IMG/VR virus record: IMGVR_UViG_3300010048_000019
Coordinates: 1-41,465 of that record
Direction: 5' to 3' (one strand)
Source of the DNA: a virus
Taxonomy: Duplodnaviria > Caudoviricetes
DNA length: 41,465 nucleotides
The number at the start of each line of letters is the position of its first letter. The stretch's first letter is position 1. Below, in pieces: positions 10,853 to 39,609 of the stretch. The notes under the pieces were generated by a model. The model ran no database searches. It was not told the DNA's origin and saw nothing but the letters and a program-made list of their open reading frames with translations. A program made the translations under genes and the position numbers.

Positions 10853-10874
10853 CAGTACTAACCACCTTGGTTGG

Positions 10875-10918
10875 CCCCGCCCCTCGTCGCTGTCCCACTA
10901 GCCCTTGGGGCGGGGTTT
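10875..10918 (+). terminator. possible intrinsic terminator with a large loop
   Basis: CCCCGCCCC (10875-10883) pairs with GGGGCGGGG (10907-10915), followed by TTT. Confidence 0.45.
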
Positions 10919-10926
10919 CCCAGATA

Positions 10927-10961
10927 GATACATACGCTAAGATAATCTTATGGTATGTATC
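10927..10961. promoter_or_regulatory. 35-bp AT-rich imperfect palindrome (operator / parS-like candidate)
   Basis: GATACATAC-GC-TAAGA-TAA-TCTTA-TG-GTATGTATC immediately upstream of the ParB-MTase RBS. Confidence 0.6.
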
Positions 10962-10977
10962 AGCCCAGGAGAATGTC

Positions 10978-12483: not shown

Positions 12484-12864
12484 GTGATGAAGTTCTCGGA
12501 GGATAACAGAAGTGGAATGATACTCCTTAACAGGATAATGGTTAGGGGTGATGTGACTGATGATGAGAAGAAAAAGGTATCAGAGATACAAAGAGACTTG
12601 CTTCGTAGACCAGAGACTTACAAACTCAATACTGATAGTCACTTCTTTATTAAACACTTGTGGTGGCGTGGAGAGCGTAAGCCAGGTGGTAGACGTGTTA
12701 TAAAGGTTGAGGTATATTACGGTGCATACGAGACATCAGTGGGATGTATTGACTGTCATAAGATAGTCTGGGTCCGCGGATCGACAGTGCGATCCGCTAG
12801 ACGTGGCTGCATCATGCTCCGCGATCAGTGCCCTTGGAAAGAGAACAACTACTATGCTCTGTAA
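12484..12864 (+). CDS. basic hypothetical protein with CxxC...C...C
   Basis: 126-aa ORF in an AT-rich segment; CIDC plus two further Cys. Confidence 0.55.
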   Translation: MMKFSEDNRSGMILLNRIMVRGDVTDDEKKKVSEIQRDLLRRPETYKLNTDSHFFIKHLWWRGERKPGGRRVIKVEVYYGAYETSVGCIDCHKIVWVRGSTVRSARRGCIMLRDQCPWKENNYYAL

Positions 12865-14138: not shown

Positions 14139-14630
14139 ATGAGAGTTATAGTTGAATCTCCATTCGCTGGGAGCTTTCAGAATGTCAGGTACAGTCGTGA
14201 ATGCATTCGAGATTCTCTTGATCGAGGAGAATCGCCGTTTGCATCACACCTTCTCTATACACAGAAAGGAATACTTGACGATAAGATCCCTGTGGAGCGG
14301 ATGCGAGGTATTAACGCTGCGGCGGGCTGGCTCCAAGTTGCAGATTTCGTCGCAGTATACATGGACCTTGGGATCACATCTGGCATGGTCTGGGGGATCG
14401 TTCGAGCTGCCCGTCTGGGAAAGGAAGTCCATCTAAGATGGCTGCGGCCCGATCGACGTGAGCAAGTAATAAGGATCGAGGACGATGCAATCAATAAAGA
14501 CTCACGAGCTAACAGCTCTGACAATGCCGCAGTCCGAGACCGTGAAATTATGGCTCTACAACGGTTTGGATTGCTGCGTGACAACAGAGGTTTTGAATGT
14601 ACTGAAACCTCAACTGACCGAAACGACTAG
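14139..14630 (+). CDS. nucleoside 2-deoxyribosyltransferase-like (DUF4406-like) fold protein
   Basis: VIVESPFAG...RGESPFASHLLY...WLQVADFVAVYMDLGITSGMVWGIVRA; its 3' end overlaps the polymerase start by 146 nt. Confidence 0.65.
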   Translation: MRVIVESPFAGSFQNVRYSRECIRDSLDRGESPFASHLLYTQKGILDDKIPVERMRGINAAAGWLQVADFVAVYMDLGITSGMVWGIVRAARLGKEVHLRWLRPDRREQVIRIEDDAINKDSRANSSDNAAVRDREIMALQRFGLLRDNRGFECTETSTDRND

Positions 14631-17550: not shown

Positions 17551-17737
17551 TGACGATCTCCCTTATCGTATCCACCGTCTCCTTGACACACAATGAGGTG
17601 CCAAGTACCTTGATGCCTGCTCCACCTTTATGATGGCACTGTATGTTCGCCTCGCGCAGGATCTGAATGTCACAGCGCTGTACCCAAAGCGGGGAGCCAT
17701 CGAGAGCAGTCAACAGCACTAATTCCAAGATCACCAC
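17531..17737 (-). CDS. small hypothetical protein
   Basis: 68-aa ORF overlapping both neighbours; GGAG RBS. Confidence 0.55.
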   Translation of the reverse strand: MVILELVLLTALDGSPLWVQRCDIQILREANIQCHHKGGAGIKVLGTSLCVKETVDTIREIVNDKACR

Positions 17738-20700
17738 TTACTCCTATGCGATCCGCCCCAGCCCTTCTTCGCCCCCGGCAACTCCTCTGGATGTGATTTG
17801 CCGAGTAATAATCCTCGTCCAACCCTGTATGGATTTTCAGCCTGCTGTTTATTCTCGTGCAGGTCCCACCAGAACTGAGTGGACTCAGCTATCTGACCAG
17901 AGCCTGGTATGTTTGCCAAGTATCCAAGCATTTGAATTACGTCGTGTGGCGCTCGTTCAGGCATGTGACCCATTGCAGTCTGATACGTCGAATATATTCC
18001 TTTTCCTATAGCTTCTGGAAGCTGAATCATAGGATCAGATTGTAGCATTAAGTCGTGAGGTATCTTCTTTCCAGCAGCTGTAGATTGGATTGCCTTACCT
18101 ATTCCATAGGAGAAGTCCCTGACAACAGGATAGGCTCCCATCACCTGATGCAGGACTCCAACCCCCTCGTCCATTGCTTGCTCACCTAGCCACTCCGGCC
18201 ACGTCTGAGCATGACCCATTCCCTTTTCCACCTTCTGTTCTGCATATCCAAGAATAGCCAAATAAAACAAAGTTCTCCATGCAGCCCTCCCAAACTTAGT
18301 GTACGCGCGAGCGGTCTCATTATTTCTGAAGTCCTCTATTCCAGTCTTTACATCTCTACCAATCGACCGTATCCTGTTCTCTGAATGATTGAAGAAGCTA
18401 AACGCGACAGTTAATAACTTTGTCAAGTCATTCGATCGCATGATCGGAGCTAGATCAGTAACACCGGATGAGCCATGTGCGTTCCTAACAGCCTTATTCC
18501 CTAGATAGATAGCTGTATCCTCATCATGTCCAGCTTCTAGAGCCTGCTCATATGCAGTAAGCGCGGTAGGATAGGCAGTAGCGAGATCGCCGATGGTAGT
18601 ACCTTGAGCACCCAGCCATATAGCGTAGTTCCACATGCTTGGATTGCCGATTGCCTGATCTAACCTCGCTCCAATATCTCGATCCTGATCATGAGCACGA
18701 TGACGAATCTCTCCGAACTTCTCATATATCTCCTGCTGCAATCTCTGGCTATCCGGAGACATCCATATCTTCACGAAGTTATTTGAGAAGTGTGGTATTC
18801 CAACCTCGCCAAAGCTGTCAACTGCTGCAGCGACTGAGTGCTTTAATATAGTCGAGAAGCGATATAACAACTGTGCCGTAACGATCCGCTCTCTACTCCA
18901 TCTAGCAGCCTCATTTAGAGCCACTAAGGACTGATCGTTTACCGATTTACCAGATCCTATATAAGCAAGCCAAGGCTCTATCTGTCTTTGATGTGCCTCG
19001 CCAAGAGCACTGTTCATTTGCTGTTGAATACGTTTATCTAGCAAGAACCTCGCAGCATCCATCAACGGTTCGCGAAAGTTCAAATCGTGAATGTACTCGC
19101 TAAGGAGTGGAACCGCAGACGAGATGTCAAGATTCAGTGGGTACGCGGCAGCGGTGCGAGCATGATCCCACCTGCTCGGTGGACTCGCTCTAAAGTACCG
19201 ATCGAGCCCAAAAACATTACTAGCATCTCCACGAGGGCCTACCCATCTTGGATCAGCGCGGAGCGGCCAATAACCACCTTTATACTCTCCAAACTCTGTA
19301 GACAGTGCCCGTGGCTTTATCTCCATCGGCGCTGTGCCAGAGGTTCGCCACGCTAGCTCCTGCCCACGTGGCCACAGGTCAGCCATAATATCCCATAACC
19401 CTTGCACGAAGTCCCAGTGGCCTTTCGTAGCATTCTCCTTCACAAGCATCTTAATAGCTATAGGGTCAAGCTGCTTCTGCTGTCCCAACCATTCAAACGG
19501 AGCGGTCAGCTTATCGAAGTTACTCGTATTACCAAAGTGGACCATCATACCAAGTAAATCGGCGTGGGTCAGAACCATTGGATTCCCAGTTTTCCAATCC
19601 ATCAACACTTGATTATCTATTTTCTCTCCTATGATCTTATGCATCTCCTTAACAGATGCCAGCTTTCTCAATGCTTTTATCTGCTGACCCAGCTTTTTCA
19701 GATCATCATACTTTCCAATCTTCGCGTTTGACAAGTTCTTGAATATCTGGTTGAAGATACCAAGAGGTTCACTGTCGCTGGCCCAGTCAAGCAGTTGCTC
19801 CGGTTTTCGTAGGAAGGCGTCAGTCTTTCTAATCCAGTTTCTAGCTGGAATTGTAGTCTCTGAAACTGGCTTGTATCTCGTAAGCTCGTTAATTCCCTGC
19901 TCTATCGCCAGTTCAAAGTCGATCTTATTGCCAGCATTGTCAAGGAACTTCTCGCGCCTGCCGATATTATCGACGCTCTCAATCCCGGCCATGAACGAGT
20001 CAAACTCGTTCATTGTGAACCTGGAGAAGTCATAGTTCTCCCAGCGCGTGTTCTTTGAGAGAAGGTCTGTGTTGACGATAGGATCGAAGCCACTCATAGC
20101 CTTGTTATGGATGTAATCAATGAGTGAAGTAGGGCCTCCCAGCGCGGCGGATAATTCAGAGTTCTCGCGTGGCTGAGGCAGCCCAACCATTCGCATCATA
20201 TTGTGAATCTGATTAACACTGTCTTGCATCACGTTTGACAGCGTTCGATTCATTCCATACTTGTTGAGGATGCCGTCCATCGCCTTGTTAAATCGCTTTT
20301 CGAAGGCCAGCGCTTCTTTCATCTTGTAAATCGCAATAACCTCCGCTTGCTTCATCTTCAGCGCTGTGGGCCAATCCTTCTTGGTGGCGGCGTCGAACGC
20401 CAGCTTTGCACTCTTCTCAGAAGCTTTCCTAAACACTTCCGACTGAATCTCGCCCGCGGGCTTGTTACCAAGTTCTTGCAGTGCATTCTTCTTTAGGTCC
20501 TCTTTCGACACGTATTCAGGCGCTTGGTCTCCAAGATTCTCTCTAATAATATTCATCTCAGCATCGAGAATGTCGATGTGATACTGTGCAAGAGCAGCCT
20601 CAGTCGCTTCATCAAAAATGTTCTTTGACAAATCGCCGTAGCGTTGCTCCATCCTAGTATTCGTCTCTTCGTCAATTCGATCTTTTAGATACTGAGCAGG

Positions 20701-23016
20701 CGTTTGATCGCCCTTATCTCTTAGATACTTGCCCAGCTCCTTAATCATCTGAGCGCCAGAGTTGAAATCGAGCTTGCTAGCTATGTCATCTGGTGGCACA
20801 CCTTCGGGGTGAGTGTAGAGATCGAGAATTTCCTTCGGAGCCTGTCCAGCTTTAACGAATCTCTCCACGATCGATCGAAGCAGTTTCTGCCGCCCCGGCA
20901 CCCTTGCGCCATTGGGAAGCACCCCGGTTCGAATGAACTTGTCCGCCGCGATCCCGCTCTCGTACTTCATATCAATAGTGGCTTCTTCCTCCATCCGCTT
21001 TCTGTTCGCTTCCCACTCAGGGGACAATCGTTTTTTAGCGAGCCTCGTCTCGCGAGCGAAGAGCTTCTGAAAATCTTCGTTCTCTGCACCTTCAATCAGA
21101 TTGAACAGACGTGCATAGGTTGGCTTGGTTAGTGAGAGAGTTTTTTGATCTTGAAAGAGTGGTTGGAAGTAAATCGAACGCTCCGCCAGTTTCATAGCAG
21201 AGTGCATAATCTTGCCACTGTTAGAGAGCACAGACAGTTCTGGTTGTTCTGCCTTCGGTGGCCGGACCTTAACCTTGACGGGGCCAGCGATTTCTCTTAG
21301 CTTATTAGCTTCCTCTACCGCTTGAGTTTTAAGATCCTCTAACTGCTGTTTGGCCTTCACATATCGAGGAGAATCCTCGGGAACATCAGGTACAGTACTA
21401 AGACTCTGGGCTCGACTTTCCGCACGAGCTGCCAAAGCTTCTGCAATGTCAGGGCGCTTATTATCCATAGCCCACTGAGCACTTTTTAACCGCTCTGCGA
21501 TTGGCTTAACACCAACATTAATTGCGTTCTCCAAAGCTTCGAGATAGTCCTTGTCACTCACTGTTTCTTGATCGAGACTCTCGTACTCTGTATCCAGATT
21601 CTCTAATAGCTTATCCAGCGTCGAGACCGGCGGTTCCTTCTGCTTCCCTATCTCCTTCCCCTCGTTATTACTCACACCAGCATTGCGCAGCACGAAGTCA
21701 TCTTTCAGCGCTTGGTAGGTCGATGGGTCCATATGAGTGAGGACCTGCCGCATCAACAGCTGAATGTCCTCGTTAGAGTTCATCGCGGCATTATACTTAT
21801 CTACGATCCTGCTATCGAAGCCAAGAAGCTTGTCTCCAACTGCGGGCATCTGATTGTCGTAGAGTTTCTGAACAGCCTCCAACGGAACGGAGAGTGTATT
21901 CTCACCGAAAGGTATCCTGAAGAAGCTCTCAAGCGCTTCCGGCGATCGGCCCTTAGTCTTCGTGACCTGAGCCATGCCAAATACTTTGTCGAACAGCTCA
22001 AGATCGTGCGCGGCGCTCTCCATCTTGAACTTGTCTATAAGTGCGTCCGCTCCAGTAGGCGGCATCTTGCCGGCCTTCAACGCCTCCTCGCTCAGCGGAG
22101 TCATCTTGTCTGGCGGAGGCAATAGCCCAGCGATCGACGTCTCCTTGCCAGTTCGTCCCTTCGCTTCGCGAGCAGCTAAGAACTCATCTATCTTCCTACG
22201 ATCGTATTGCCCCTGGCTCTCTCCCGGTCGAGGTCCTTCTGGCTCAAATCCAGCTTGCCTTAGAAAAGCATCAATCTCTGTCGGCGAGGAACGATAGAGT
22301 ATGCTTTCTTTCGATACCTTTGGCGCAGCCGCATTCAGTCCCCCAAGCATCATACCGAGGCTTACAATAGCATCATCCTGATCTTTGCGCATCTGCCGAG
22401 CGCGGAACGCACCTTCTTCAGTGCCATCATCTACTTCCGGCGTCTCCGCTATTGTCTTCAGTCGATCAAACATATCATAGCTGTGCATCAGTATAGATGG
22501 GATGGCTGCAAGCCCTGCGATTGGCAGGCCAACAGGACCAGTAAAAACTGGCATCAATCCCCCAGCGATCATCAGCGCATCAGCGCCGTGCTCGACTCCC
22601 TGCCAGACCTGTTTAGGCGTTAGACCCTTTGGAAACTGGTTAATTACTTCTCCCATATCCCCGAGCATCTGCCAGTCATCGTTGGAGACTTTTGATGCTT
22701 CTGGGTTCTGATTGATGTATTGCTGAAGTATTGGGCTGCTCATAACTCGGAAAGCAGCATTGCCAGCATTAACTTGCCGCTTCGCAGCCTCTGGATCACC
22801 GGCAACAGCCGTTGTTGAAATACCAAGCTGTTTCGCAAGATCAATATTCTTCGCGGCTTGATCAGCATTTGCGTTGGCGTCGGCGACTGCTTTCGAGGTA
22901 GCAGTTGCTGGTGAGCTGAAAGAGCCGTAAGCGGGCGGAGTTTTCTCTTCGGTTGGGGCTTCTCCACCACCACCGCGACTGGTTAGAGTCGTCCAATCAA
23001 AGTCCGTGTTTGTCAT
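17731..23016 (-). CDS. large internal virion (DNA ejection, T7 gp16-analogous) protein
   Basis: 1761 aa, helical, last large gene after the tail tubular and core genes; hydrophobic segments near both ends. Confidence 0.75.
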   Translation of the reverse strand: MTNTDFDWTTLTSRGGGGEAPTEEKTPPAYGSFSSPATATSKAVADANANADQAAKNIDLAKQLGISTTAVAGDPEAAKRQVNAGNAAFRVMSSPILQQYINQNPEASKVSNDDWQMLGDMGEVINQFPKGLTPKQVWQGVEHGADALMIAGGLMPVFTGPVGLPIAGLAAIPSILMHSYDMFDRLKTIAETPEVDDGTEEGAFRARQMRKDQDDAIVSLGMMLGGLNAAAPKVSKESILYRSSPTEIDAFLRQAGFEPEGPRPGESQGQYDRRKIDEFLAAREAKGRTGKETSIAGLLPPPDKMTPLSEEALKAGKMPPTGADALIDKFKMESAAHDLELFDKVFGMAQVTKTKGRSPEALESFFRIPFGENTLSVPLEAVQKLYDNQMPAVGDKLLGFDSRIVDKYNAAMNSNEDIQLLMRQVLTHMDPSTYQALKDDFVLRNAGVSNNEGKEIGKQKEPPVSTLDKLLENLDTEYESLDQETVSDKDYLEALENAINVGVKPIAERLKSAQWAMDNKRPDIAEALAARAESRAQSLSTVPDVPEDSPRYVKAKQQLEDLKTQAVEEANKLREIAGPVKVKVRPPKAEQPELSVLSNSGKIMHSAMKLAERSIYFQPLFQDQKTLSLTKPTYARLFNLIEGAENEDFQKLFARETRLAKKRLSPEWEANRKRMEEEATIDMKYESGIAADKFIRTGVLPNGARVPGRQKLLRSIVERFVKAGQAPKEILDLYTHPEGVPPDDIASKLDFNSGAQMIKELGKYLRDKGDQTPAQYLKDRIDEETNTRMEQRYGDLSKNIFDEATEAALAQYHIDILDAEMNIIRENLGDQAPEYVSKEDLKKNALQELGNKPAGEIQSEVFRKASEKSAKLAFDAATKKDWPTALKMKQAEVIAIYKMKEALAFEKRFNKAMDGILNKYGMNRTLSNVMQDSVNQIHNMMRMVGLPQPRENSELSAALGGPTSLIDYIHNKAMSGFDPIVNTDLLSKNTRWENYDFSRFTMNEFDSFMAGIESVDNIGRREKFLDNAGNKIDFELAIEQGINELTRYKPVSETTIPARNWIRKTDAFLRKPEQLLDWASDSEPLGIFNQIFKNLSNAKIGKYDDLKKLGQQIKALRKLASVKEMHKIIGEKIDNQVLMDWKTGNPMVLTHADLLGMMVHFGNTSNFDKLTAPFEWLGQQKQLDPIAIKMLVKENATKGHWDFVQGLWDIMADLWPRGQELAWRTSGTAPMEIKPRALSTEFGEYKGGYWPLRADPRWVGPRGDASNVFGLDRYFRASPPSRWDHARTAAAYPLNLDISSAVPLLSEYIHDLNFREPLMDAARFLLDKRIQQQMNSALGEAHQRQIEPWLAYIGSGKSVNDQSLVALNEAARWSRERIVTAQLLYRFSTILKHSVAAAVDSFGEVGIPHFSNNFVKIWMSPDSQRLQQEIYEKFGEIRHRAHDQDRDIGARLDQAIGNPSMWNYAIWLGAQGTTIGDLATAYPTALTAYEQALEAGHDEDTAIYLGNKAVRNAHGSSGVTDLAPIMRSNDLTKLLTVAFSFFNHSENRIRSIGRDVKTGIEDFRNNETARAYTKFGRAAWRTLFYLAILGYAEQKVEKGMGHAQTWPEWLGEQAMDEGVGVLHQVMGAYPVVRDFSYGIGKAIQSTAAGKKIPHDLMLQSDPMIQLPEAIGKGIYSTYQTAMGHMPERAPHDVIQMLGYLANIPGSGQIAESTQFWWDLHENKQQAENPYRVGRGLLLGKSHPEELPGAKKGWGGSHRSKW

Positions 23017-24056
23017 TGAGTCTGCTTCTTACGATAGAGGTCATACAAAGCATCGGGAGTTGGCGTCGCGCCTTTATGCAGCATCGACCATTCATGAGCC
23101 TCCGGACTATTCTCAAAGTCCTTCGGAACCATGTACAGACGCTGTGGGCTAGCAAAGCTGCCAAAGAAGCCACTTCTATCCGCTCGATCGCGAACGACGT
23201 TGCTGGCGACCTGCTCGACGTCAGACCTATTAAGCACTGGAGAGTCACCACCCTTAGCTATCAGTGCTCTCTTTAGTTCAACCTCCATTGCACCCTTAAC
23301 TTGCAGACGGGTGTCCTCATCTGGAGTTGCGCCAAGCTCTTTACTGAAGATGTCATTTGCCCAGTGCATATAAACATCTAGCTTATCTTCAACAGATCTA
23401 CTGCGCCTAAGTCCTTGAAGCCTTCGATTTAGCTCCTGGGTCTGTGCCTTCGGCAAGTCTAATACAGCTGGATTCAGCTTATTTATAACCTCGTCCTTGT
23501 CTTTTATTCCATCCATAGCATCTCGAATGATTCCAACTGCGGCGTCGAATTTTCTGTGTCGATCGTCAGTGAAGGGTGGGTCCTGTTTAGAGTTATGTGC
23601 AAATACACTATCTACATATTTCTGAATATCATTATTTCGGCTCTTGGCGTCTGCGAGCATCTTAGAGAAGTTTGGATCGATTTGCATAGCTTCGGTCTCA
23701 TTACGAGGACCGATTCCGAACTTTTCAGTATTATATAAGATTGTATTAAGGCCTGTCTTATCTGAAGCCAGCTGCATCTTGTTGAGAGCTATTTCAGAGC
23801 TAAGCCTGTTACGCCTCTTCCTTATCGACTCATCAATGACATGCTGGCGTTCGACTGGATCAGCGAAGTTATCATTAGCCCACTTGTTAAGGCCAGCCAT
23901 CCACTGATTCTCGGTGGCTAGGTCCGTCGCGCCCTGATCAGTTGGCTGCTCCGCTGTTGCTTGCCCCGTCGTCTCAGGTTGAGTCGTCGATGTAGTATCT
24001 TCAGTCGTTGTCGGCTGGTTCAGTACCGCACCAGCAATATCCGATAATTCAGCCAT
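23013..24056 (-). CDS. internal virion protein
   Basis: 347 aa, translationally coupled on both sides within the ejection-protein block. Confidence 0.65.
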   Translation of the reverse strand: MAELSDIAGAVLNQPTTTEDTTSTTQPETTGQATAEQPTDQGATDLATENQWMAGLNKWANDNFADPVERQHVIDESIRKRRNRLSSEIALNKMQLASDKTGLNTILYNTEKFGIGPRNETEAMQIDPNFSKMLADAKSRNNDIQKYVDSVFAHNSKQDPPFTDDRHRKFDAAVGIIRDAMDGIKDKDEVINKLNPAVLDLPKAQTQELNRRLQGLRRSRSVEDKLDVYMHWANDIFSKELGATPDEDTRLQVKGAMEVELKRALIAKGGDSPVLNRSDVEQVASNVVRDRADRSGFFGSFASPQRLYMVPKDFENSPEAHEWSMLHKGATPTPDALYDLYRKKQTQ

Positions 24057-25507
24057 TATTGAGTTCCTGCCATTCTCGTACCGCCCCAGCCACGATAAAG
24101 CTGGATATGAACTGGATCAGTGTAGAACGCGCGGCCTGGTAAGAACTCTAGTCCGAAGCGGCTTCTAAGCACACCAGACTCATGCCATTGTCTCAGCAGG
24201 CTTAGGACAGCGCCCCGTCTTAGATCAGCCGCTTGGCCCAACTGGTGACGGCTCCGCCCAGGAGGAGCGGCGAGTCCACCTCCGCCATGAGGCATGTAGG
24301 TCTGACCTTGCCACGTTACTGGTCGGCGAGTGTAGTTCGCGTAATACTGTGCTTGTCTGTGCGAGTCACGGTAGGCGTCATTGATGGTTACTTTCTCGCC
24401 TGTCTGTGCTTCAGCCGCGCGAATGGCTGTCTCGAGTCTACTCGCGAAGTTTGGTGCCAGCCCACTCGTATCGACACCACTTCCTGCACGAGCAGAGAGG
24501 AACGAACTGCCGGGACTACCTGGATGAGCAACAGGAGCGTCCTCATCATCGTGAGTGTAGCTGGCTAGATTGTATAGTCCACTGCCAGTCGTCTCGCTTT
24601 TCTTCTGCGGTTGAGTCGTTGGCTTGGTTTGCGGGAGGGTTGATCCTGGCACTGGAGTGAAGTTCCCGTGAGAGGCCTGATCCGTAGCATTACCAAGTTC
24701 TCTCTCACGAATAACCTTGCTCAAGTAATCAAACTCCGTTCCTAATATATGACTTTGATCTTCGTGATCCTTGTTATACAGCTTACCCAAGATGTCCTTC
24801 GCGCGTGCAGTATCATGAGTCGGTCCATTCACTAAGTCTGTTATGATTTTTCTGGCAACAGCACCCATCTGCGTTTTAGCATGAAAGTCCCGTGCTTCTG
24901 GCGCTACCTTGCTAATCTCAGCCTCACGAGCTATGTTAGCTTTAATCTGAGCGAAGTTCTTTTGGACAGTTGCATCGTCACTGATGTTAGCCATTGTATT
25001 GTCCATCAGCGTAGCGGTTTGTCCTTGAAGAGAGCTGACCGTATACTTCTGTCCATTCTCCACCGTCGTGGTCACAGCTGTATTGATGTGGTTCCTGACG
25101 TTGTAGAGAGTCTGTCGATCGTATTGAGTCTTCTGGTTAGGACTCATATTGGCAGAGCCCTGATTTGTTAAATCCTTGACTCTTTGGAGGAACTGAGGAA
25201 GTTGCTTCTGCTGTTCAGGCACTGGGAGCTTTTTGAACTCTTCCGTCTCAGCGGCAAGTTGTGTGAAGTTGTCAGTCACAGCGTTGTTGACAGTCGCCTC
25301 GTCCTTGAAATTCTGGATATTGTAGAAAGACTCTGCTGTCTTATCTAAGCCCTGACCAATCTTCTCTAACCCAGCCCCGATTGAGCTGCCAAACATCACT
25401 GGATCGGTGTGTATGTCTATTGGACGCGAACCAGGCCCATACGATTCCATATGGTAGAACTGACTCGGCTGATCCCCTCCGCCGGGATCATAAGGTATTC
25501 TTGGCAT
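24056..25507 (-). CDS. internal virion protein with C-terminal M15 (VanY-like) peptidoglycan peptidase
   Basis: Helical N-terminal part; INDAYR...Q, AAPPGRSRHQLGQAADL (SxHxxGxAxD), DPVHIQ. Confidence 0.82.
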   Translation of the reverse strand: MPRIPYDPGGGDQPSQFYHMESYGPGSRPIDIHTDPVMFGSSIGAGLEKIGQGLDKTAESFYNIQNFKDEATVNNAVTDNFTQLAAETEEFKKLPVPEQQKQLPQFLQRVKDLTNQGSANMSPNQKTQYDRQTLYNVRNHINTAVTTTVENGQKYTVSSLQGQTATLMDNTMANISDDATVQKNFAQIKANIAREAEISKVAPEARDFHAKTQMGAVARKIITDLVNGPTHDTARAKDILGKLYNKDHEDQSHILGTEFDYLSKVIRERELGNATDQASHGNFTPVPGSTLPQTKPTTQPQKKSETTGSGLYNLASYTHDDEDAPVAHPGSPGSSFLSARAGSGVDTSGLAPNFASRLETAIRAAEAQTGEKVTINDAYRDSHRQAQYYANYTRRPVTWQGQTYMPHGGGGLAAPPGRSRHQLGQAADLRRGAVLSLLRQWHESGVLRSRFGLEFLPGRAFYTDPVHIQLYRGWGGTRMAGTQ

Positions 25508-31254: not shown

Positions 31255-32676
31255 CTAACTCCAACTAATCGAGACACTACCATCGCCACCAGACTGTCCA
31301 TCCCCACTACCTAAACCGCCCGAGCCAACACTCACCGCAACGCTCGAGCCCAGCGCGGTCCACGAGTAGAACGTGCTAGTGCACAGTCCACCAGCGCCAC
31401 CAACGCCTCCATCATCCGCACCGCCAGGGCCTAAGCCACCTACACCACCAGCTCCGCCAGCACCACCACCACCTGTAGTAACGTTGCCTCCAGAGCCGCC
31501 GCTAGCGCTGCCAGGCACCTGGTACGTTCCACCGCCGCCACCACCATACGCTACAACGCTACCAAACCCACTGTCACCGCCAGGATTTCCTGACGAAGGA
31601 ATAGAGCTGTTATCACCGGGATCACCACCTCCGCCACCACCACCACCTCCCGCCACGGTAATACTCAGCGAATTAAACGGTTGCACTGGCCAGTTGTACG
31701 AGCCAGGTCCCCAACTCGCGCTGCCAGGTATCACTTGATTGGTGACTGTGATCCCATTCGACGATCCGCTGATTACGCCGTCCGAGACACTAATCACCCA
31801 AGTCCCATTCGTTCGTACCGTTCCACTAAACGTCCTCGACCCACCTGGCAACGTAGAGCTACCAGGCACTGTGCCAGCGCCATCAGAGCACGAGAAGTTG
31901 ATCGCGCCTGCGTAAGTCGATACAACACTATTGAAGGCGTTCAGCGCGGACACCGTGAAGCTGAAGGCGACTCCTGATGATGCAGTGCTCGGCGCAGACA
32001 CAGCGAAGTGGGTCGCGATGTTCGGGTTAGGTCCAACAGCGATAGCAGTTGATGTGCCAGTGATCGAGCCCACTAACATGTCAGTCACTGTAATCGTCTG
32101 ATTGCCAGGCGTGTTGAACGCGCAGGTGAAGTTCGCGCTGCCACCAGGCACTGTCGAGTTGAAGGGGAGCGTGGCGGTGCCGTCGGAGCTTGAAAACCGG
32201 ACCGTGCCAGCGTAGCCCGTCGCGACAGCGCCGGTTGATGTGAGGGCAGTCACTGTGATCTGGAACGACTGGCTAGCGTTGACAGAGGCTGGCCCAGTGA
32301 CAGAGAAGTGCGTCGCGCCCGCGGCTGGCACCGTTACAGTCGCCGCGCTCGATGTACCGCTCACCCCGGCGTTGATAGTATCCGTCGCTGTAACCACCTG
32401 TGATCCGACAGTATTGAACGTCACACTGAAGGTACCAACGCCACTAATCAGTGTACTATTAGTGGGGAGTACCGCGGCAGAGTCAGAACTAGTGAACTTA
32501 ACTGAACCTGTATAGCTGGCGACAGTCGCGCCCGATGCATTGAGCGCCATCACGGTGTAAGATACTGGCACACCAGTGTAGGCTGATCCCGGTCCCGTCA
32601 CAGAGAAGTGCGTGACGCCCGCGACTATCGCAGACGCAGGAGGCACCATAAAGTGAGCCAAGCCAGGCAACGGCAT
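31255..32676 (-). CDS. adhesin-like protein: three Ig-like repeats + glycine-rich C-terminal domain
   Basis: Three ~95-aa repeats beginning THFSVTGP / THFSVTGP / THFAVSAP with Y.G...F.SSD...LP, then a poly-Gly domain ending GGDGSVSISWS. Confidence 0.78.
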   Translation of the reverse strand: MPLPGLAHFMVPPASAIVAGVTHFSVTGPGSAYTGVPVSYTVMALNASGATVASYTGSVKFTSSDSAAVLPTNSTLISGVGTFSVTFNTVGSQVVTATDTINAGVSGTSSAATVTVPAAGATHFSVTGPASVNASQSFQITVTALTSTGAVATGYAGTVRFSSSDGTATLPFNSTVPGGSANFTCAFNTPGNQTITVTDMLVGSITGTSTAIAVGPNPNIATHFAVSAPSTASSGVAFSFTVSALNAFNSVVSTYAGAINFSCSDGAGTVPGSSTLPGGSRTFSGTVRTNGTWVISVSDGVISGSSNGITVTNQVIPGSASWGPGSYNWPVQPFNSLSITVAGGGGGGGGGDPGDNSSIPSSGNPGGDSGFGSVVAYGGGGGGTYQVPGSASGGSGGNVTTGGGGAGGAGGVGGLGPGGADDGGVGGAGGLCTSTFYSWTALGSSVAVSVGSGGLGSGDGQSGGDGSVSISWS

Positions 32677-33512
32677 TAAGCGAAATTCCCTGCAAACGTA
32701 CAGTCCATCTCACTCGCCGATCGACAGACGTAAGAGATTATGTCGACAGCATTTGGCGCGGTTGATAGAGTCGGCTTTACTCCTCCTGGAAACTTGTACT
32801 GATTGCCCCAAGTAACTGTCCGGTTCCCGATCGAGTCCTGCACAAGAAAGAACACGCCCGACTGTCCCGGCTTCATCGAGAGCGGATTGTTTGCTGTGCT
32901 CGCCCCGGTTAAAAGCCAGCTGAAGTTGATCCCAGCATTAAGCGTCGGTGTCACGACTGTTCCACTCAGCGTGGCGGGGACCGCCGCCGCCCAGACCTGA
33001 TCCGTTGTAAGCAGCAGACTGACCGCGTTCCCGAGGAACTGAGCGGTCGATGCTATGGCTGCCGCGGCGAGCTTAACGAAGGTGACAGCGCCGTTAGTAA
33101 TAGATGTGTTAACTAACCCAGTTGAAGGACCGCCGACAACATCTCCTTCCAGCTGGACAGCACCGCCAGCGTTGATCACCTGTTGATCGACATAGTTTTT
33201 CGTCGCGGCCTGACTCGGATTGCTTGCCGTTACTGGATCGCCAGCGAGGATAATGTTCCCCGTCATAGTCCCACCAGCCAAGGCCAGCTTCTTCGCATCG
33301 AGTTCGTTCAGCGCGGACTGGACGTTGGAGCTGGATATCCCGCCCCCAGAGGATGCGTTCGGAACACTCGTAACACCACCAGCCTGTATTACCGTCCCTG
33401 CAGGAGGCGGCGAGACAATAGTCCAGTGACCGCCGGTCCAAGTGTACATCACACCATTTGGCGCTGTGAACTGTTGGCCGACTATCGGAGAGCTTGGGAA
33501 GTCTATAGCCAT
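32676..33512 (-). CDS. tail fibre protein 4
   Basis: N-terminal IDFPSSPIVGQ...YTWTGGHW; NVQSALNELD, LAGGTMTG, ATKNYVD fibre motifs; C-terminal PTLSTAPNAVDIISY domain. Confidence 0.8.
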   Translation of the reverse strand: MAIDFPSSPIVGQQFTAPNGVMYTWTGGHWTIVSPPPAGTVIQAGGVTSVPNASSGGGISSSNVQSALNELDAKKLALAGGTMTGNIILAGDPVTASNPSQAATKNYVDQQVINAGGAVQLEGDVVGGPSTGLVNTSITNGAVTFVKLAAAAIASTAQFLGNAVSLLLTTDQVWAAAVPATLSGTVVTPTLNAGINFSWLLTGASTANNPLSMKPGQSGVFFLVQDSIGNRTVTWGNQYKFPGGVKPTLSTAPNAVDIISYVCRSASEMDCTFAGNFA

Positions 33513-34750
33513 TACCGAGCCTCCAGCGCCGTGATCCGTTCCGTTGCCTGCTGCAAGGCGCGGATCAGGACCGGCACGAATTTAGAATAGTCGACGCCGT
33601 AGCTGTCCGTCTCCTCGTTGTGATGGACCGCTTCTGGGAAGACCTCCTCCACTTCTTGCGCGAACACGCCGTATGAACGCAGCCCACTTTTCTTCCATTT
33701 GAAATTGTACGGCTTCAGCGCCGCGATGATCTTTGTGCCGTCAAATACCAACTGGTCTGTTTTCAAACGAGCATCGGAGGTCGTGTTGAAAGAGACTGTC
33801 GACCCATTGGTTGAAATACTGCCAACGAACGCGCCGCTATAATAAAATGCCATCATGTAGGCGGCAGTGTTATCTACGCGAGCCAAGTAGGCCCCACTGG
33901 AAGGGCCGCCGGTATAATATGCACTGATCCCCCAACCGTTGCTGGTGTTGCCGGCAAATCCAGCGAATCCGCCCCACCAATTCGTCTGCATACCAGCATT
34001 GTTGGTGCCGACATTGCCGTACTGATTGCTGCTACAAATCAGTGACTCGCCGCTGTACGAGTCATAGAGGAAGGTCACGTTGTTGTTCCGATAGAGTACC
34101 GTGGCTTGCGAGTTGGCAGAACGATCAAGGAGATTGAATGCAGCTAAGCCGCCGCTGCCACCACCTGAGGATATCACCTGTCCTTGAACATTCAAGTCGT
34201 TGTTGACCTGCACCGCTGTCTTCCCGTAGATATACGGCGTCGCGTCATAGGCACCACCGATGACACCACTCTTGTTGCCTGCGGCTAATATTGTAACTCC
34301 ACCATTCTGGACAGAAAAGCAAGAACCGGCACCACCCGTACCAGCGTTGGTGCCGTTGACAGTGACGATGTTGGGAGCGTTGGCAGGAGGGACGGTGCCA
34401 AAGGTAGCACCTAGCGTAGCTGATAGACTGAGACCACTACCATTGGTGACGGTCACTGCGCCACCAGCGTTAACAGCTCCACCAATCCCAACGCCGCCTG
34501 TAACTACCAACGCGCCAGTCGTGGTTGACGTGGATGGAGTCGATGCAGTGACGGTCGCGCTCGGGAGTAACAACCCTCCTGTCATCGTGTCGCCAGCCTT
34601 CGCCACGAACAGACTGCTAACAACAGCAGGGGTGGGTATAGTGGTCCAAGCGAACCCGTTCCACGTGTAGACTGGTTGGCCCGAGACAGGCGGCGAAGGA
34701 TAGGTCTGGCCTGTGGTCGGGGAAGATGGGAAGTCGAGTGGTGATGTCAT
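33512..34750 (-). CDS. tail fibre protein 3 with C-terminal peptidase S74 intramolecular chaperone
   Basis: LDFPSSPTTGQ...YTWNGFAW; VAKAGDTMTG; STSTTTGALVVTGGVGIGG; TSDARLK...GVFAQEV...PEAV...VDYSKFVPVLIRALQ. Confidence 0.87.
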   Translation of the reverse strand: MTSPLDFPSSPTTGQTYPSPPVSGQPVYTWNGFAWTTIPTPAVVSSLFVAKAGDTMTGGLLLPSATVTASTPSTSTTTGALVVTGGVGIGGAVNAGGAVTVTNGSGLSLSATLGATFGTVPPANAPNIVTVNGTNAGTGGAGSCFSVQNGGVTILAAGNKSGVIGGAYDATPYIYGKTAVQVNNDLNVQGQVISSGGGSGGLAAFNLLDRSANSQATVLYRNNNVTFLYDSYSGESLICSSNQYGNVGTNNAGMQTNWWGGFAGFAGNTSNGWGISAYYTGGPSSGAYLARVDNTAAYMMAFYYSGAFVGSISTNGSTVSFNTTSDARLKTDQLVFDGTKIIAALKPYNFKWKKSGLRSYGVFAQEVEEVFPEAVHHNEETDSYGVDYSKFVPVLIRALQQATERITALEAR

Positions 34751-36024
34751 TACAGCCTCGCGTCAAGTTTCAAGAAGCCTGTGCCACTAGTAAATGACGG
34801 ATAGTGTAAATATAACTGTCCTACCGTTAACCCAGTAAAATTCCCAAATGAATAAATACCATAATCAGGTCCATTACTCCCAACGATGGCCACGTTTGCC
34901 GCCGATTGAGTAGCGTTCTGAGATGTAACATTCGTCAGCGAGATCGGTGCTGTCACACTCACTGATGGAGCTGCACGCATGCCTGAGTGCCTCACAGCAA
35001 AGTCTATACTCGTCGAGATCCCTGCAATTCCAGCCCCTTCCATTGCGATGATCTGCAGGTATCGCTTGCACAATTGCAACTCTTGATCGTAGGGCCGCAT
35101 AATGAACGGCGCTCGTCCAGCCGAGGGAAGCTCGATGCCTGGAAGGACGATCAGGCCTGTGATGCTTATTTGATTACCTGCGGTGGCGACAAGGTTAGTT
35201 GTCGCAGCCGTGCCGCTCATAAGAGTACCACTCTGCCACGATCCAGCAGTCCCTTGATAAGTGGTGCCTGTGCCAAAGCAGAACCGGACCATCATGCCCT
35301 TGCTATTATCTGCGGTCCAAGTCCCCGCCGTATCTCCGGGCACTGTTAGTGTTTTATATTCCCAAGTATTGCTTGCGTGGATCGCCACGTCGACGAGGTA
35401 GTAGCGGTTGGCTGCGCCGTTAAAGACACAAACAGCCATGTTCCCAACGGCAGTGCTGTAAACGTAAAAGCCGATTGACAGCGACTGAGCGTTGGCCGTT
35501 CCCCATCCCAATCTGGCGATGCGGCGACCTTCTATTATATTTTGCAAAAAGACTTGATCAGTTGCGGCAAGCGACGGCTTACCGGTTCCCACTGTCAATG
35601 TTAAGGAGGCCGAAAATCCGGGGGGCGCAGCACCAGTATATCCTGGCCAGAAGTTCATCGTCAGCGGTGCAGACCCTTGATACGCACCCCAACCATCTTG
35701 AGCATACAAGTAGGTCGCAGATGTCAAGGTGAAGGGTCCACCACCAGCTGCAAATTCTTGACTGACCTCGCACGACCCGTTGACCTGTATCCCGTTGAAG
35801 GCCAGCGCATCGAACGGCGCGGAATAGGCATTGATCTTCGCTTGGTCCTGCTGTGCGGGTGTGAGTGTCTGCGATGTGTCGTAGCGAATCGCCCCATCAA
35901 GTGTCGAAAGACCCGCAGTGACCCAAGCATGGCCATCCCAACTCCACGTCGGGGTGTTAGGGACCGACGGCGAAGGATAGAGTTGGCCAATGGTTGGATT
36001 AGCTGGAAAGTTAAGGCCCATCAC
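34750..36024 (-). CDS. tail fibre protein 2 (possible carbohydrate-binding beta-sandwich)
   Basis: LNFPANPTIGQ...WSWDGHAW; QTLTPAQQDQAKIN; NG...VSQ...DGW; RPYDQELQLCKRY motif typical of phage fibre proteins. Confidence 0.8.
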   Translation of the reverse strand: MMGLNFPANPTIGQLYPSPSVPNTPTWSWDGHAWVTAGLSTLDGAIRYDTSQTLTPAQQDQAKINAYSAPFDALAFNGIQVNGSCEVSQEFAAGGGPFTLTSATYLYAQDGWGAYQGSAPLTMNFWPGYTGAAPPGFSASLTLTVGTGKPSLAATDQVFLQNIIEGRRIARLGWGTANAQSLSIGFYVYSTAVGNMAVCVFNGAANRYYLVDVAIHASNTWEYKTLTVPGDTAGTWTADNSKGMMVRFCFGTGTTYQGTAGSWQSGTLMSGTAATTNLVATAGNQISITGLIVLPGIELPSAGRAPFIMRPYDQELQLCKRYLQIIAMEGAGIAGISTSIDFAVRHSGMRAAPSVSVTAPISLTNVTSQNATQSAANVAIVGSNGPDYGIYSFGNFTGLTVGQLYLHYPSFTSGTGFLKLDARL

Positions 36025-37832
36025 TTCCTCGCTTCGAGTTCGTCGACACGGGCTTGAAGCTGCTGCACGGCGCGGATCAGCACAGGCACAAACTTGGAGT
36101 AGTCAATAAAGTAATCGTCGGTGGTCTCGTCGTGAGTCACTGCCTCTGGATGAACCTTAATCGCTTCCTGAGCGAACAGTCCATGGGCGCGGGTCTTTTG
36201 CTTAGTCCATCTAAAGTTCTTCGGTTTCAACGCAGCGATCACTGCTGACCCGTCAAAGTCTTTCTCGTCATCCTTCAAGCGAGCATCGGAGGAGGTATTG
36301 TACAAGGTACCTGATCCATTCTGGCTAATGCTTCCAATTGCAGTGCCACCAGCACTATAAAACTGTAGATAAGTCGTATTGTCTTGCTGTTGAATGAAGC
36401 CCATTCCGTACTGAGTACTACCACCAACATAAGACAGAAGAATGCCAGCATTAACTGGTGGACTGCCGATGCCTGACTGCGTTGTTAGTTGAAAGGTGCC
36501 GTTCGACGAAATCAGGTTGCCATTTAACCAGTGCATCCCGTTGGATACTGAGATCTGAGCGTTAGCATATAGCGTTGGAGTAGCACTAAAGGCACCTCCA
36601 TAGAACGTGCTATAATTGCCAATTCCCATTATAACACTGCCAGCATTACCAATCGAGAGAGCGCCGCCCCCACTTGTGCCAGCGTTCCCACCGTTGACAG
36701 TTACAATAGAGGCTGGAGCAGTACTACCTGCTCCAAAAGAGGCACTTGTACCACTAGCTTGGATATTGCCAGCAAAATAAGAGGCACCTGTAACGTTTAA
36801 ACCACCTGATGTAATAATCAGCTCGCCCGTCATCGTATCGCCACTCTTGGCGACATACGCAGCAGGATTTATCGTCGGTGAGGCAACGACCCATTGCGCC
36901 CCGCTGCCACTGTTATACATAACGTAAAGCGTACCATTAGTTGAGTTCCACCAGAACGAGTTGACCGGTGCTGAGGTCGGGGCAGTATCGGAGATAATGA
37001 GATTAGCAAGTCCAGTAAGGCTTGGGACTGGGTTCGACAAGACCCACTGACTGGAAGTCCCGTCGTTATAGTAGATGTAGGTGCATCCATCTGTGTTGTT
37101 CCACCACAGCGAGTTGGCGACAGGCGAAGCCGGTGGAGTCGGGCCAATGGAGACAGTCGTACCACCACCACCACCACCGGGGGAGACAATGACCCACTGC
37201 AATGAGTCAACGTCCTGATAGTTAACGTAGAGAAGGCCCTCAGAGGAGGACCACCAGAGAGAGTTTGCCGGGGCCCCTACTGGTGGGTTGTCAGAGACGT
37301 ATACCGTGGTTCCGCCTCCGCCTCCTCCTGAGCCGGCGTGGGTATCAACGTAGTTCTTCGTGGCGACTTGCTGGAGGGCAGTGGGGTCGGGCGCGAGTAT
37401 CTGTCCACCGGTCCCAACCTGCAACGTTCCGGTCAGCGTCCCGCCATTGTCGAGCGACAGTACCTTGTCCCAAGCCCCGCTGCTCCGACCGTAAGTACTG
37501 CCGTCGGTCGGAGCATCAGCGATACCCGTTGGACTCTTCAGCCATTTGCCTGGCACACCTGGAGTCGCATACCGACAATATAGACTGCCATCCGGTGGAC
37601 AGTCCCCACTGATAGCATTAGCATCTAGCTCAAGGATCGCATCTTGGACGTTGTTGGCGCTTATCGTTCCACCTGGAGTGAAGACCACGTTATCCGCAGT
37701 ATTAGCCGGTATCTCCGCGAGCGGGAGCATCACCCAACCAATACTCGGCCCCATATAGCACCGGACAGTGTTTGGCAGAGGACTGTCTTGTCCGGGATAG
37801 ATAGGGTTTAACGTGTCAATAGTCCACGACAT
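36021..37832 (-). CDS. tail fibre protein 1 (three internal repeats, C-terminal peptidase S74 chaperone)
   Basis: DAPTDGSTYGR, ATKNYVD, three P...NSLWW...G..Y..Y......QWV..SP repeats, VAKSGDTMTG, SSDARLK...GLFAQE...IDYSKFVPVLIRAVQ. Confidence 0.87.
   Translation of the reverse strand: MSWTIDTLNPIYPGQDSPLPNTVRCYMGPSIGWVMLPLAEIPANTADNVVFTPGGTISANNVQDAILELDANAISGDCPPDGSLYCRYATPGVPGKWLKSPTGIADAPTDGSTYGRSSGAWDKVLSLDNGGTLTGTLQVGTGGQILAPDPTALQQVATKNYVDTHAGSGGGGGGTTVYVSDNPPVGAPANSLWWSSSEGLLYVNYQDVDSLQWVIVSPGGGGGGTTVSIGPTPPASPVANSLWWNNTDGCTYIYYNDGTSSQWVLSNPVPSLTGLANLIISDTAPTSAPVNSFWWNSTNGTLYVMYNSGSGAQWVVASPTINPAAYVAKSGDTMTGELIITSGGLNVTGASYFAGNIQASGTSASFGAGSTAPASIVTVNGGNAGTSGGGALSIGNAGSVIMGIGNYSTFYGGAFSATPTLYANAQISVSNGMHWLNGNLISSNGTFQLTTQSGIGSPPVNAGILLSYVGGSTQYGMGFIQQQDNTTYLQFYSAGGTAIGSISQNGSGTLYNTSSDARLKDDEKDFDGSAVIAALKPKNFRWTKQKTRAHGLFAQEAIKVHPEAVTHDETTDDYFIDYSKFVPVLIRAVQQLQARVDELEARK
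36875..37304 (-). repeat. three tandem ~43-aa protein repeats within tail fibre 1
   Basis: About 37179-37304, 37029-37157 and 36875-37001; the first two are preceded by poly-Gly linkers. Confidence 0.85.
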
Positions 37833-37834
37833 AA

Positions 37835-38365
37835 CTAGACCCTCGGCTTAGGCTGTACTCTGTCAGAGAGCTGCTTCGTAAGTTGTGCGTTCTGTTCGAC
37901 CAGCGCCGCGACCTGTTTCTGCAGCTCTTCGAACCTCTCCTCAGAGATCCCCTTCAACGACATGTTCTTCTGCGCGTCCGTCATCGCCGCTGCAAGCTGT
38001 TTCTCGAAGTTCATCAGCAGCGACTGTGAGTACCCCTGCCCCGGCAGAGAGTCGATCGGGTGCTTCCATTCCACCTGCAACGAATCGCTCAGCGCCTGCG
38101 CCTCATCATCGAGCGGTTCCATGTCCGGCGTAGGATTTCCCTCGAAGATGTAGTCCCGAGCTTGATGGTTCTTCCCTGCGTGCGCGACCACCACCTCACC
38201 TGGATAGTTCCAGTCTGCCGGTTGCTCTGGATGCAGATAGAGCGGAACACTATACACCTTCCGGCCTTGCCGTCCCGAGCCTCGATCAGTCTCTTTGTAC
38301 TCCCACTCCGTGCCTGGCACGATCAGGTAGTGGGGCTGTGTCAGTCTCCATCTCATTTCCAGCAT
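37835..38365 (-). CDS. hypothetical late protein
   Basis: RWRLTQPHYL...PTPDMEPLDDEA and a C-terminal coiled coil; start may be ATG 38356. Confidence 0.7.
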   Translation of the reverse strand: MLEMRWRLTQPHYLIVPGTEWEYKETDRGSGRQGRKVYSVPLYLHPEQPADWNYPGEVVVAHAGKNHQARDYIFEGNPTPDMEPLDDEAQALSDSLQVEWKHPIDSLPGQGYSQSLLMNFEKQLAAAMTDAQKNMSLKGISEERFEELQKQVAALVEQNAQLTKQLSDRVQPKPRV

Positions 38366-38859: not shown

Positions 38860-39609
38860 TTATCTCCCTAGAGCTTTCCAAGTCAGCGGGCCAACGACCC
38901 CATCAGCGGTCAAGCCCTTCTGACTCTGGAACGTCTTGACCCGGCCCTCAGTCGCTGGGCCGAAGTCACCATCGAGTGCCAACCCTCCTAGCAGCTTCTG
39001 AAGTGTGAGCACATCAGGACCCTTGGAGCCGCGACGGAGGGTTGGCATCGTCACCGGAGGAGGCTGAGAAGGGCTACCTGGGGTCTGCTGGCGTCCTGCT
39101 AAGGCTCCGGCGATTGCTTTGCAGATTTCCACGAAGTTCATCTTGTATAGCTCCACATCAGTTTCACTATCAACAAAACAAACCTCAATCAAAATCGGTT
39201 GCTTATGACATTTGTTCAGGAAGCTTAGGTTGGTCCTGTGCTTAGCTCCGCGATCGACCAAACCACTCGCCTGAGAAATCGCCTTCGAGACCTTCGCCGC
39301 CATATCCTTCTGTGCATCCGCCTTATAAAGGACTTCTGTTCCTCGCGGAGCAACTGTCTGACTAAACGCGTTGAAGTGGACTGACACATCGCGATCTCGC
39401 GTTTGTTTGTTGTGCCAGGTTGTAATCGCAGTAAGATTGGACTGTTGGTTTTTGGAGGCATCGTCATGGAACGTCACCACCTTGTTGCCGAATCCTCTTA
39501 AGGCGACGGCGACTTGATCGACCACCCGCCGGGCCTCAGTGACCTCATTGATCAGCCCTGAAGCCCCACCAACGTGCCTACCATGACCCGACGAGATGGC
39601 GAAGTTCAT
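38860..39609 (-). CDS. endolysin: N-acetylmuramoyl-L-alanine amidase (Amidase_3) + PG_binding_1
   Basis: ISSGHG, NE, VSVHFNA, GTEV, ILIEVCFVD; LRRGSKGPDV..LQ..L...DGDFGPAT...VK.FQ...GL.ADGVVGPLTW. Confidence 0.92.
   Translation of the reverse strand: MNFAISSGHGRHVGGASGLINEVTEARRVVDQVAVALRGFGNKVVTFHDDASKNQQSNLTAITTWHNKQTRDRDVSVHFNAFSQTVAPRGTEVLYKADAQKDMAAKVSKAISQASGLVDRGAKHRTNLSFLNKCHKQPILIEVCFVDSETDVELYKMNFVEICKAIAGALAGRQQTPGSPSQPPPVTMPTLRRGSKGPDVLTLQKLLGGLALDGDFGPATEGRVKTFQSQKGLTADGVVGPLTWKALGR

Follow-up and report, generated by a model that had tools for sequence, protein, structure and literature searches.

Organization of the fibre gene cluster

The virus record IMGVR_UViG_3300010048_000019, a 41,465-base sequence from soil metagenomes that was analysed at its full length (the window), encodes a cluster of fibre genes in which one protein, the hub, carries three copies of a repeat of 40 amino acids (aa) and the next three proteins begin with a common N-terminal motif. 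The repeat (socket) and the motif (plug) are predicted to be the two halves of a protein-protein joint, as proposed in an earlier reading made from the DNA letters (the sequence-only reading). All features of the cluster lie on the minus strand. The hub, or root fibre (603 aa, 36021–37832), comprises a conserved N-terminal peptide, three sockets, a shaft, a tip, and a C-terminal S74 chaperone, the latter matching Pfam Peptidase_S74 at aa 515–566 (E 9e-9, 35.9 bits against a cut-off of 22), and it has no plug. Socket 1 (hub aa 179–218, 37179–37298) has glycine runs on both sides; socket 2 (aa 229–268, 37029–37148), when folded alone, reached a predicted local distance difference test (pLDDT) score of 93 and was used in the complex model described below; and socket 3 (aa 280–319, 36876–36995), which lies directly before the fibre shaft, lacks an otherwise 93%-conserved Asp. 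The units are spaced by about 50 aa and have four short strands each. The three copies described in the sequence-only reading were found letter for letter at these positions, and since they are only 41–43% identical to one another as protein and 51–56% as DNA, they are old and are not a duplication introduced by assembly. Contigs from a second soil run match the window across two gene junctions (35993–36465 and 34647–35093) with zero differing letters; the stretches left uncovered in the second and third sequencing runs carry no meaning.

Immediately after the hub come three genes for putative branch fibres. Branch fibre A (423 aa, 34750–36021) has its plug at aa 1–33 (35923–36021) and a body that matches the tail fibre family phrog_4492; branch fibre B (412 aa, 33512–34750) has its plug at aa 5–35 (about 34646–34738) and an S74 chaperone at aa 325–376 (48.4 bits against the curated Pfam cut-off of 22); and branch fibre C (278 aa, 32676–33512) has its plug, the one used in the complex model, at aa 1–30 (33423–33512). 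The S74 domain was not found in branches A and C by Pfam scan. The shaft and chaperone of the hub are 37% identical to branch B, and the two are paralogues. Searches of the whole window with profiles trained on other phages recovered exactly three sockets (47–68 bits), all in the hub, and exactly three plugs (34–49 bits), one at the N-terminus of every branch fibre; no other match in the window exceeded 5 bits. The claimed one-sided distribution, with no plug on the hub and no socket on the other three fibres, therefore stands. Among the window fibres, Pfam found S74 chaperones and no lyase or hydrolase family, the full-length fibres not having been folded. As a lead from the Atlas, CBM_4_9 is present in 21% of the members of one look-alike cluster for branch A, which may hold a carbohydrate-binding module.

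The sequence-only reading placed all four open reading frames (ORFs) correctly on the minus strand and recognized the four fibre genes, but it started branch A at a GTG at 36024 (424 aa) and left out a fifth coupled gene (473 aa, 31255–32676). One-base stop/start overlaps join all five genes, and the ATG at 36021 is therefore the more likely start of branch A. The 473-aa protein has neither plug nor socket, a Gly-rich C-terminus, and three repeats that look Ig-like by eye; no family or PDB match was found for it.

Co-occurrence and matched numbers of sockets and plugs

The distribution of the two motifs was studied in three sets of loci. The neutral set was picked by a conserved 176-aa gene of unassigned function, which lies directly upstream of the hub (37835–38365, minus strand) and served as a neutral marker for collecting relatives (28 loci; 13 whole records). 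The socket-selected set contains 80 loci, with 37 whole records searched, 15 of them at least 90% complete. The plug-selected set contains 75 loci, 74 of which had neither profile trained on them, and 36 whole viral records; it was seeded by a four-row plug alignment, and this favours close relatives, most of them 1:1. Scans of genomes and metagenomes gave 1 and 12 loci, one being the window's own record, which was excluded. The pooled 194 loci were reduced to 67 non-redundant loci having a match, taken with 1.5 kilobases (kb) upstream and 3 kb downstream. The three-repeat region alone, used as a query, gave no match in viral contigs, and a socket alignment was needed; scattered Pfam matches at E 0.001–0.07 were treated as chance.

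A socket is present in 35 of the 36 held-out plug-picked viral records (neither profile having been trained on them), and the lone record without one is a 43%-complete fragment with its plug near the contig end. In record G057, the socket lies outside the fetched locus and was found at the far end of the contig; in the eight plug-selected loci without a socket, the first plug always lies within about 1.3 kb of the locus start. Among the relatives picked by the neutral marker, 12 of the 13 whole records have neither motif and one has a 1:1 pair, while a socket occurs in one of the 28 loci, with a plug in the next gene of that locus.

The numbers of sockets and plugs also correlate across phages, as the sequence-only reading had expected. 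Counts are equal in 55 of the 67 non-redundant loci (permutation mean 37.4, p 5e-5; rho 0.74) and in 23 of the 25 fully held-out plug-selected loci (permutation mean 18.8, p 0.0014). In the 36 held-out records, which are not dereplicated and are mostly 1:1, they are equal in 30 at E<=1e-3 and in 33 after five matches with E>1e-5 are dropped, and 10 of the 11 held-out records that are at least 90% complete are equal. Loci with several sockets tend to have several plugs (14/5/1/47; Fisher p 1.6e-9). Control motifs do not follow plug number in this way: rho is 0.06–0.16 for three shaft or linker motifs, −0.18 for S74, and −0.13 for a socket-like module that lacks the YxD..QWV signature and occurs in only 10 of the 67 loci, with S74 and the generic module counted with profiles.

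Gene order and layouts

The position of the motifs within and between genes is likewise ordered. Plugs lie within 6 aa of the start codon in 206 of 209 cases, compared with 81 of 233 sockets, all on one strand, and enough sockets stand ahead of every plug in 63 of the 67 loci, compared with a mean of 30.5 and a maximum of 44 in gene-order shuffles. With S for a socket and P for a plug, the layouts include S/P (44 loci), S/PS/P (5), S/PS/PS/P, SS/P/P, SS/PS/P/P and others, that is, both chains and branches; the window has the layout SSS/P/P/P. A profile of the T7/Bbp9 tail anchor (61 bits for Bbp9 itself) found 18 loci, and the ORFs with this anchor carry a socket in 10 of the 18 and a plug in none, while in cyanomyoviruses sockets are found also on baseplate wedge proteins. 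As read from these sequences, the pattern is that of a rooted tree, with an anchored root bearing sockets, inner nodes bearing a plug and sockets, and leaves bearing a plug only. An extensive case was seen in a 45-kb phage (L085:2081-19913, record G042), in which more than 17 kb are spent on a fibre tree with 7 sockets and 5 detected plugs, including a 2828-aa and an 863-aa protein, each with a plug and three sockets, and further plug genes.

Predicted structure of the proposed joint

The predicted socket fold consists of one short strand and a three-stranded sheet (pLDDT 93) and the predicted plug fold of three strands with an N-terminal arm (pLDDT 87). A complex with three copies each of socket 2 and the branch-C plug was modelled with a score of 0.85, far above the best of three controls (0.02). 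The contacts in the runs coincide to at least 93%, and the partner has a pLDDT of at least 84. Of 157 solved pairs, 116 reached the mark applied to the model, as did 2 of 215 mismatched ones, a calibration that is rough here because of the use of our own alignments and multi-copy chains. In the model, the last socket strand (Q37-W38-V39-L40) pairs with the last plug strand (around W30), and the best contacts join socket residues 37–40 to plug residues 28–31 and socket Y30, D32, Q37 and V39 to plug F5, each pairing one socket copy with one plug copy. The nearly invariant residues of both partners (socket Y30, D32, Q37, W38 and V39; plug F5 and W30) are among these predicted contacts, and socket Y30, D32, Q37 and V39, which are 93–99% conserved, are absent from the generic signature-less module. 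Searches of PDB sequences with the socket and plug profiles gave no significant match, so the model is unlikely to be recalling a like complex.

Fold comparisons gave weak matches of the socket to residues 583–625 of CBA120 TSP3 (Z 5.2, root-mean-square deviation 2.3 over 41 residues) and to the collagen XV trimerisation domain (Z 4.7), while the XD2/XD3-like fold of T4 gp10 gave no significant match, CBA120 TSP4 1–335 being reached only at a Foldseek E of 1.4 (best VIA Z 5.2). The fold matches point weakly to small trimerisation modules and do not establish the fold as new or as different. The top fold match of the plug, a 34-residue capsid chain of phiKZ (Z 4.3), was dropped. No family in the local Pfam names either motif; PF26696 (PTL_trimer), which is absent from that copy, occurs in 24% of one Atlas cluster (TM 0.35), and a newer Pfam model may cover this module.

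Alternative explanations

Several results count against a strictly matched joint and are weighed here with the explanations that they favour. The first of these is that the joint is real but not one-to-one, any plug fitting any socket, with mixed or incomplete branch sets, competing plugs and self-adding plug+socket proteins; this is a variant of a joint between hub and branches, is not exclusive of it, and is entertained as a tentative possibility. In agreement with it, the modelled pair of socket 2 and branch-C plug was chosen arbitrarily and still modelled well, the interface residues are nearly invariant across phages, covariation is weak, L087 has more plugs than sockets, and cyanophages have sockets to spare. 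Strict equality of the counts does not hold everywhere. With a narrow held-out plug profile, socket-selected loci were equal in 22 of 40 (p 1e-4; rho 0.30, P 0.058), 13 of them scoring no plug. Among the 15 socket-selected records at least 90% complete, 10 were equal, or 12 after three weak matches were dropped, with a plug profile trained on these same loci, and G032 (3:2), G042 (7:5) and G044 (2:4) remain unequal. The 12 unequal loci of the 67 have a socket excess in 10 and a plug excess in 2. Large cultured phages have spare sockets, with sockets to plugs at E<=1e-3 of 10:5 in S-CRM01, 10:2 in S-B68, 14:10 in S-H34, 7:3 in S-CREM2 and 5:2 in DSL-LC01, figures that include weak and partial matches; some divergent plugs missed by the profile can be seen by eye, and S-B68 stays unbalanced regardless. 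Conversely, plugs outnumber sockets by four to two at L087:11814-16301. A joint allows for empty sockets; L087 needs competing tips or unseen sockets. Against free interchange, the counts are mostly exactly equal, which suggests that each socket is filled, and the window sockets differ at 57–59% of positions while two of the window plugs have a common 3–4 residue insertion, which leaves room for specificity.

Two further observations concern these exceptions. The last three plug proteins of L087 are of similar size (379–381 aa) and paralogue-like, and are possibly competing tips. In addition, tiny socket-only proteins (70–91 aa) lie between a socket-ending gene and a plug gene at L062:10139-10348 and L086:7769-7981 and in L031, L102 and L105, those of L062 and L086 sharing their first residues with the long upstream protein; such proteins account for several of the 2:1 exceptions.

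The second explanation is that of an ordinary multi-fibre cluster, in which a common three-stranded trimerisation module exists in two versions, plug and socket, that are co-inherited in fibre cassettes and do not bind each other. It can draw on the distant homology of plug and socket (HHalign 85%, E 6e-6), on the weak likeness of both folds to small trimerisation modules, on the unequal counts in cyanomyoviruses, and on the choice of model controls, which were unrelated proteins and included no homologous decoy module. Conservation of interface columns is not clearly higher than that of other columns (socket p 0.054, plug p 0.63), and in the weak covariation over 86 pairs only the top pair joins two interface residues (mirror rho 0.28, with a shuffle that ignores shared ancestry). 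Relatedness was handled by 80% dereplication, by which shared ancestry is only partly controlled, and chain-type loci would retain equal counts without selection if the stretch of DNA from a socket to the following plug were duplicated. Such duplication cannot, however, produce the layout SSS/P/P/P of the window, and equal counts are also left unexplained in the other duplication-proof layouts, SS/P/P (L029) and SS/PS/P/P (L043). An ordinary cluster further leaves unexplained why the motifs co-occur in 35 of 36 plug-picked records compared with one of 13 neutral records, why sockets come first, why plugs are excluded from anchored proteins, and why the signature-less module does not track plugs, and the socket-specific residues lie in the predicted interface. 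We regard this explanation as improbable.

Independent attachment of the plug proteins to capsid or tail, with sockets binding a third partner and matched counts arising from cassette inheritance, is very improbable. In its favour, the window has no match to the T7 gp17/BPP-1 Bbp9-type N-terminal anchor by the profile used, and its contig is incomplete, so that other partners could be missing. Against it, plugs are accompanied by sockets in podovirus-like, other and myovirus contexts with no capsid or tail type in common, the direct socket-plug model passes, and both motifs are missing from 12 of 13 close relatives in which the neighbourhood is the same.

A probable branched fibre assembled through sockets and plugs

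The repeat and the N-terminal motif are probably, and with some confidence, the two halves of a protein-protein joint through which three secondary fibres are predicted to dock on the three repeats of one virion-anchored hub, forming a branched host-binding appendage. The sequence-only reading had cast the repeat as a socket for the N-terminal motif of other fibres, and support for it comes from the matched counts, the complex model, the order of the genes and the absence of plugs from anchored proteins. Both partners would be small three-stranded beta modules joined by pairing of their last strands, and the invariant N-terminal Phe of the plug would pack on Tyr30, Asp32, Gln37 and Val39 of the socket. 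The fibres are presumed to be trimeric because two of them have S74 chaperones, and a ring of three socket copies would then take one secondary trimer; in an alternative geometry, one branch would be bound per socket copy. Proteins with a plug and sockets would extend chains, proteins with a plug only would be leaves, and the root would combine an anchor with sockets and have no plug. The likely origin of the joint is a general trimerisation module of fibres, split into two complementary forms. Its likely purpose would be to provide several different adhesive tips per particle, swappable as gene cassettes, and up to four different tips are plausible on the window phage.

The hub is distinguished from the three branches by its conserved N-terminal GPSxGWV peptide (hub aa 16–46, 37695–37787), which the branches lack and which is common to 20 related loci. 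The peptide is found on proteins of 136 to over 1100 aa across the relatives L002–L024, and searches for it gave no informative PHROG or cultured match. It is likely the virion anchor of the hub, which may sit on the head or on the tail: in several relatives the peptide and a normal T7-type tail fibre are encoded by different genes, and no T7-type anchor was found in the window. Five near-complete relatives gave no match to a T7-type fibre anchor (in a search without a positive control), and the GPSxGWV subgroup may attach its fibres by a route that is not T7-type.

A second, different joint may exist at the other end of the cluster. In 23 of 27 rows homologous to the C-terminal domain of branch C, the next gene starts with M-hydrophobic-x-G and has a varied body, and such a short hydrophobic-x-G start is present on the 473-aa gene, which follows branch C. 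The 473-aa protein is for this reason likely a separately encoded tip that branch C would carry.

Comparison with known receptor-binding systems

Branched receptor-binding systems are known mainly from enterobacterial phages, where they use large gp10-like domains. Anchor-branch systems of receptor-binding proteins are described for the Klebsiella podophages of the KP32, K11, KP34, Menlow and PhiK64-1 groups in the portions consulted of PMC6872550 and PMC13352976. As in these and in G7C, the root has a putative anchor that the secondary fibres lack, and the secondary fibres have a conserved N-terminal docking motif. In the Klebsiella phages, docking takes place on a T4 gp10-like domain and uses a group-specific peptide of 7–29 aa, according to the same portions (PMC6872550; PMC13352976), whereas a 40-aa three-stranded module is used here, the plug is a folded socket homologue, a single motif pair is found in unrelated types of phage, and no depolymerase family was seen in the tips by Pfam. 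Multi-layer trees built from reusable docking units are similarly reported for G7C gp66/gp63.1, CBA120 TSP1-4 and the hyperbranched fibres of phiKp24 in excerpts of PMC13352976 and PMC9700779. Those excerpts describe XD2/XD3 T4 gp10-like domains and beta-helical tailspikes; in gp66 of G7C, residues 138–375 form two XD domains, together about 240 residues (PMC13352976, in part), and the docking unit found here is far smaller. The best fold match of the socket, a weak one, is the C-terminal domain of CBA120 TSP3, and not a branching domain. The window system is not filed as a member of the anchor-branch group, because its docking unit is far below gp10-like size and its plug is a folded socket homologue; by analogy, the joint is likely a functional, much smaller counterpart of the Klebsiella, G7C, CBA120 and phiKp24 systems.

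BPP-1 resembles the window phage in its head (GP7 capsid and Bbp16 cement families) and in its separately encoded trimeric tips, two Mtd trimers being present per tail fibre according to the part of PMC2408619 consulted. The Mtd_N domain is a beta module of similar size, with an Atlas feature match of 0.88, which is a lead only, and a Z of 2.4 between plug and 1yu0. Identity with the BPP-1 Mtd joint was rejected, since the whole BPP-1 genome gave 0 sockets and 0 plugs, and PF18454 (Mtd_N) matched 0 of 82 sockets and 0 of 78 plugs at E<=0.1.

In the T4-like cyanophages S-CRM01, S-H34, S-B68, S-CREM2 and P-SSM2, the same two motifs occur on tail-fibre-like, "tail collar" and baseplate wedge proteins, which are annotated only as hypothetical or fibre proteins (phrog_3304, phrog_9729, phrog_17970, phrog_3449), and sockets outnumber the detected plugs. 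By coordinate matching, the socket proteins of S-CREM2 are ORF112, 115, 122 and 126 and its plug proteins ORF113, 114 and 127. Table 3 of its virion proteome (PMC10665884) includes ORF112, 115, 122 and 126 as well as ORF114 (7 peptides) and ORF127 (1 peptide), while ORF113 is absent from that table; the socket (4/4) and plug (2/3) proteins are thus structural, and the proteome does not speak to their contact.

Genomic context of the cluster

The window encodes a podovirus gene set with a GP7-family capsid, Bbp16 cement, tail-tube and ejection proteins and DNA polymerase A. The closest cultured capsids, phiV10- and Tyrion-like, are 51–54% identical to that of the window, and near-complete relatives have a size of 47–51 kb. 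The contig is likely incomplete, because portal and terminase were not seen among the window genes and the capsid gene lies at the contig end. A single match among metagenome-assembled genomes is the same contig as a viral record and gave no host assignment. Elsewhere in the window, a ParB-N and DNA-methylase fusion (10867–12246) was seen, as were a UDG-superfamily gene (12803–13879) followed closely by the gene of a short DNA polymerase A (509 aa, 14485–16014), an ejection-protein block (17731–25507) with a VanY-like peptidase (24056–25507) and a 1761-aa LPD22 protein, and an amidase with a peptidoglycan-binding domain (38860–39609) between the cement gene and the fibre block. In L003, L004 (e.g., L004:8833-9731), L007, L008, L010 and L011, the interval from the cement gene to the 176-aa gene holds one or two small genes whose starts look, by eye, like signal peptides; such starts, which are odd for a virion gene block, are also seen on some fibre-like genes (L010:4036, L013:9357).

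Distribution and implications

The motifs are widespread. At E<=0.001, the socket profile matches 9,062 of 1.84 billion cluster representatives; among the best 150 of these 9,062 matches, up to 8 socket stretches occur per protein and 19 also have a plug match. In stored viral stretches, an estimated 870 or so match socket patterns and about 700 match plug patterns. A direct socket search of cultured phages led only to Synechococcus phages and two marine single-cell records, and the plug also led to Planktothrix phage Pag-Yong1, with a 1:1 pair and the socket gene upstream, and to actinobacterial phage DSL-LC01; plug matches in Arthrobacter phages were mid-gene and weak and were rejected. Short-loop sockets without the DGxSSQ insertion occur with canonical plugs in collagen-like fibres (L202, which is DSL-LC01, and L077:11223-11342). 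In addition, two other recurring N-terminal motifs were noticed by eye on cyanomyovirus fibre genes and may be further plug classes; N-terminal motifs of this kind stand at L197:15626 and 16920, L199:4871, L203:5854 and L198:12507, and several such proteins carry sockets. A description of the plug-socket pair was not found in paper searches, which covered few subscription journals and no supplements.

Judged by motif searches, the system is not special to this podovirus, since it is found in podovirus-like, other and myovirus gene contexts and elsewhere also forms chains (socket, then plug+socket, then plug). It may well be, on balance, that a single connector of 40+30 residues, derived from a trimerisation module split into complementary halves, is a general assembly code for the receptor-binding trees of thousands of uncultured soil and water phages, with podovirus tail anchors, baseplate wedges and other proteins as roots, a wiring that can be read by motif counting, and plug+socket proteins that may extend chains of variable length. 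The joint is about a third of the size of a large gp10-like domain, and if the binding holds, laboratory phages or protein scaffolds could be fitted with receptor-binding tips through a very small connector. With the counting and order rule, the host-binding architecture of uncultured phages could become predictable, and many "hypothetical" virion proteins of cyanophages could be placed.

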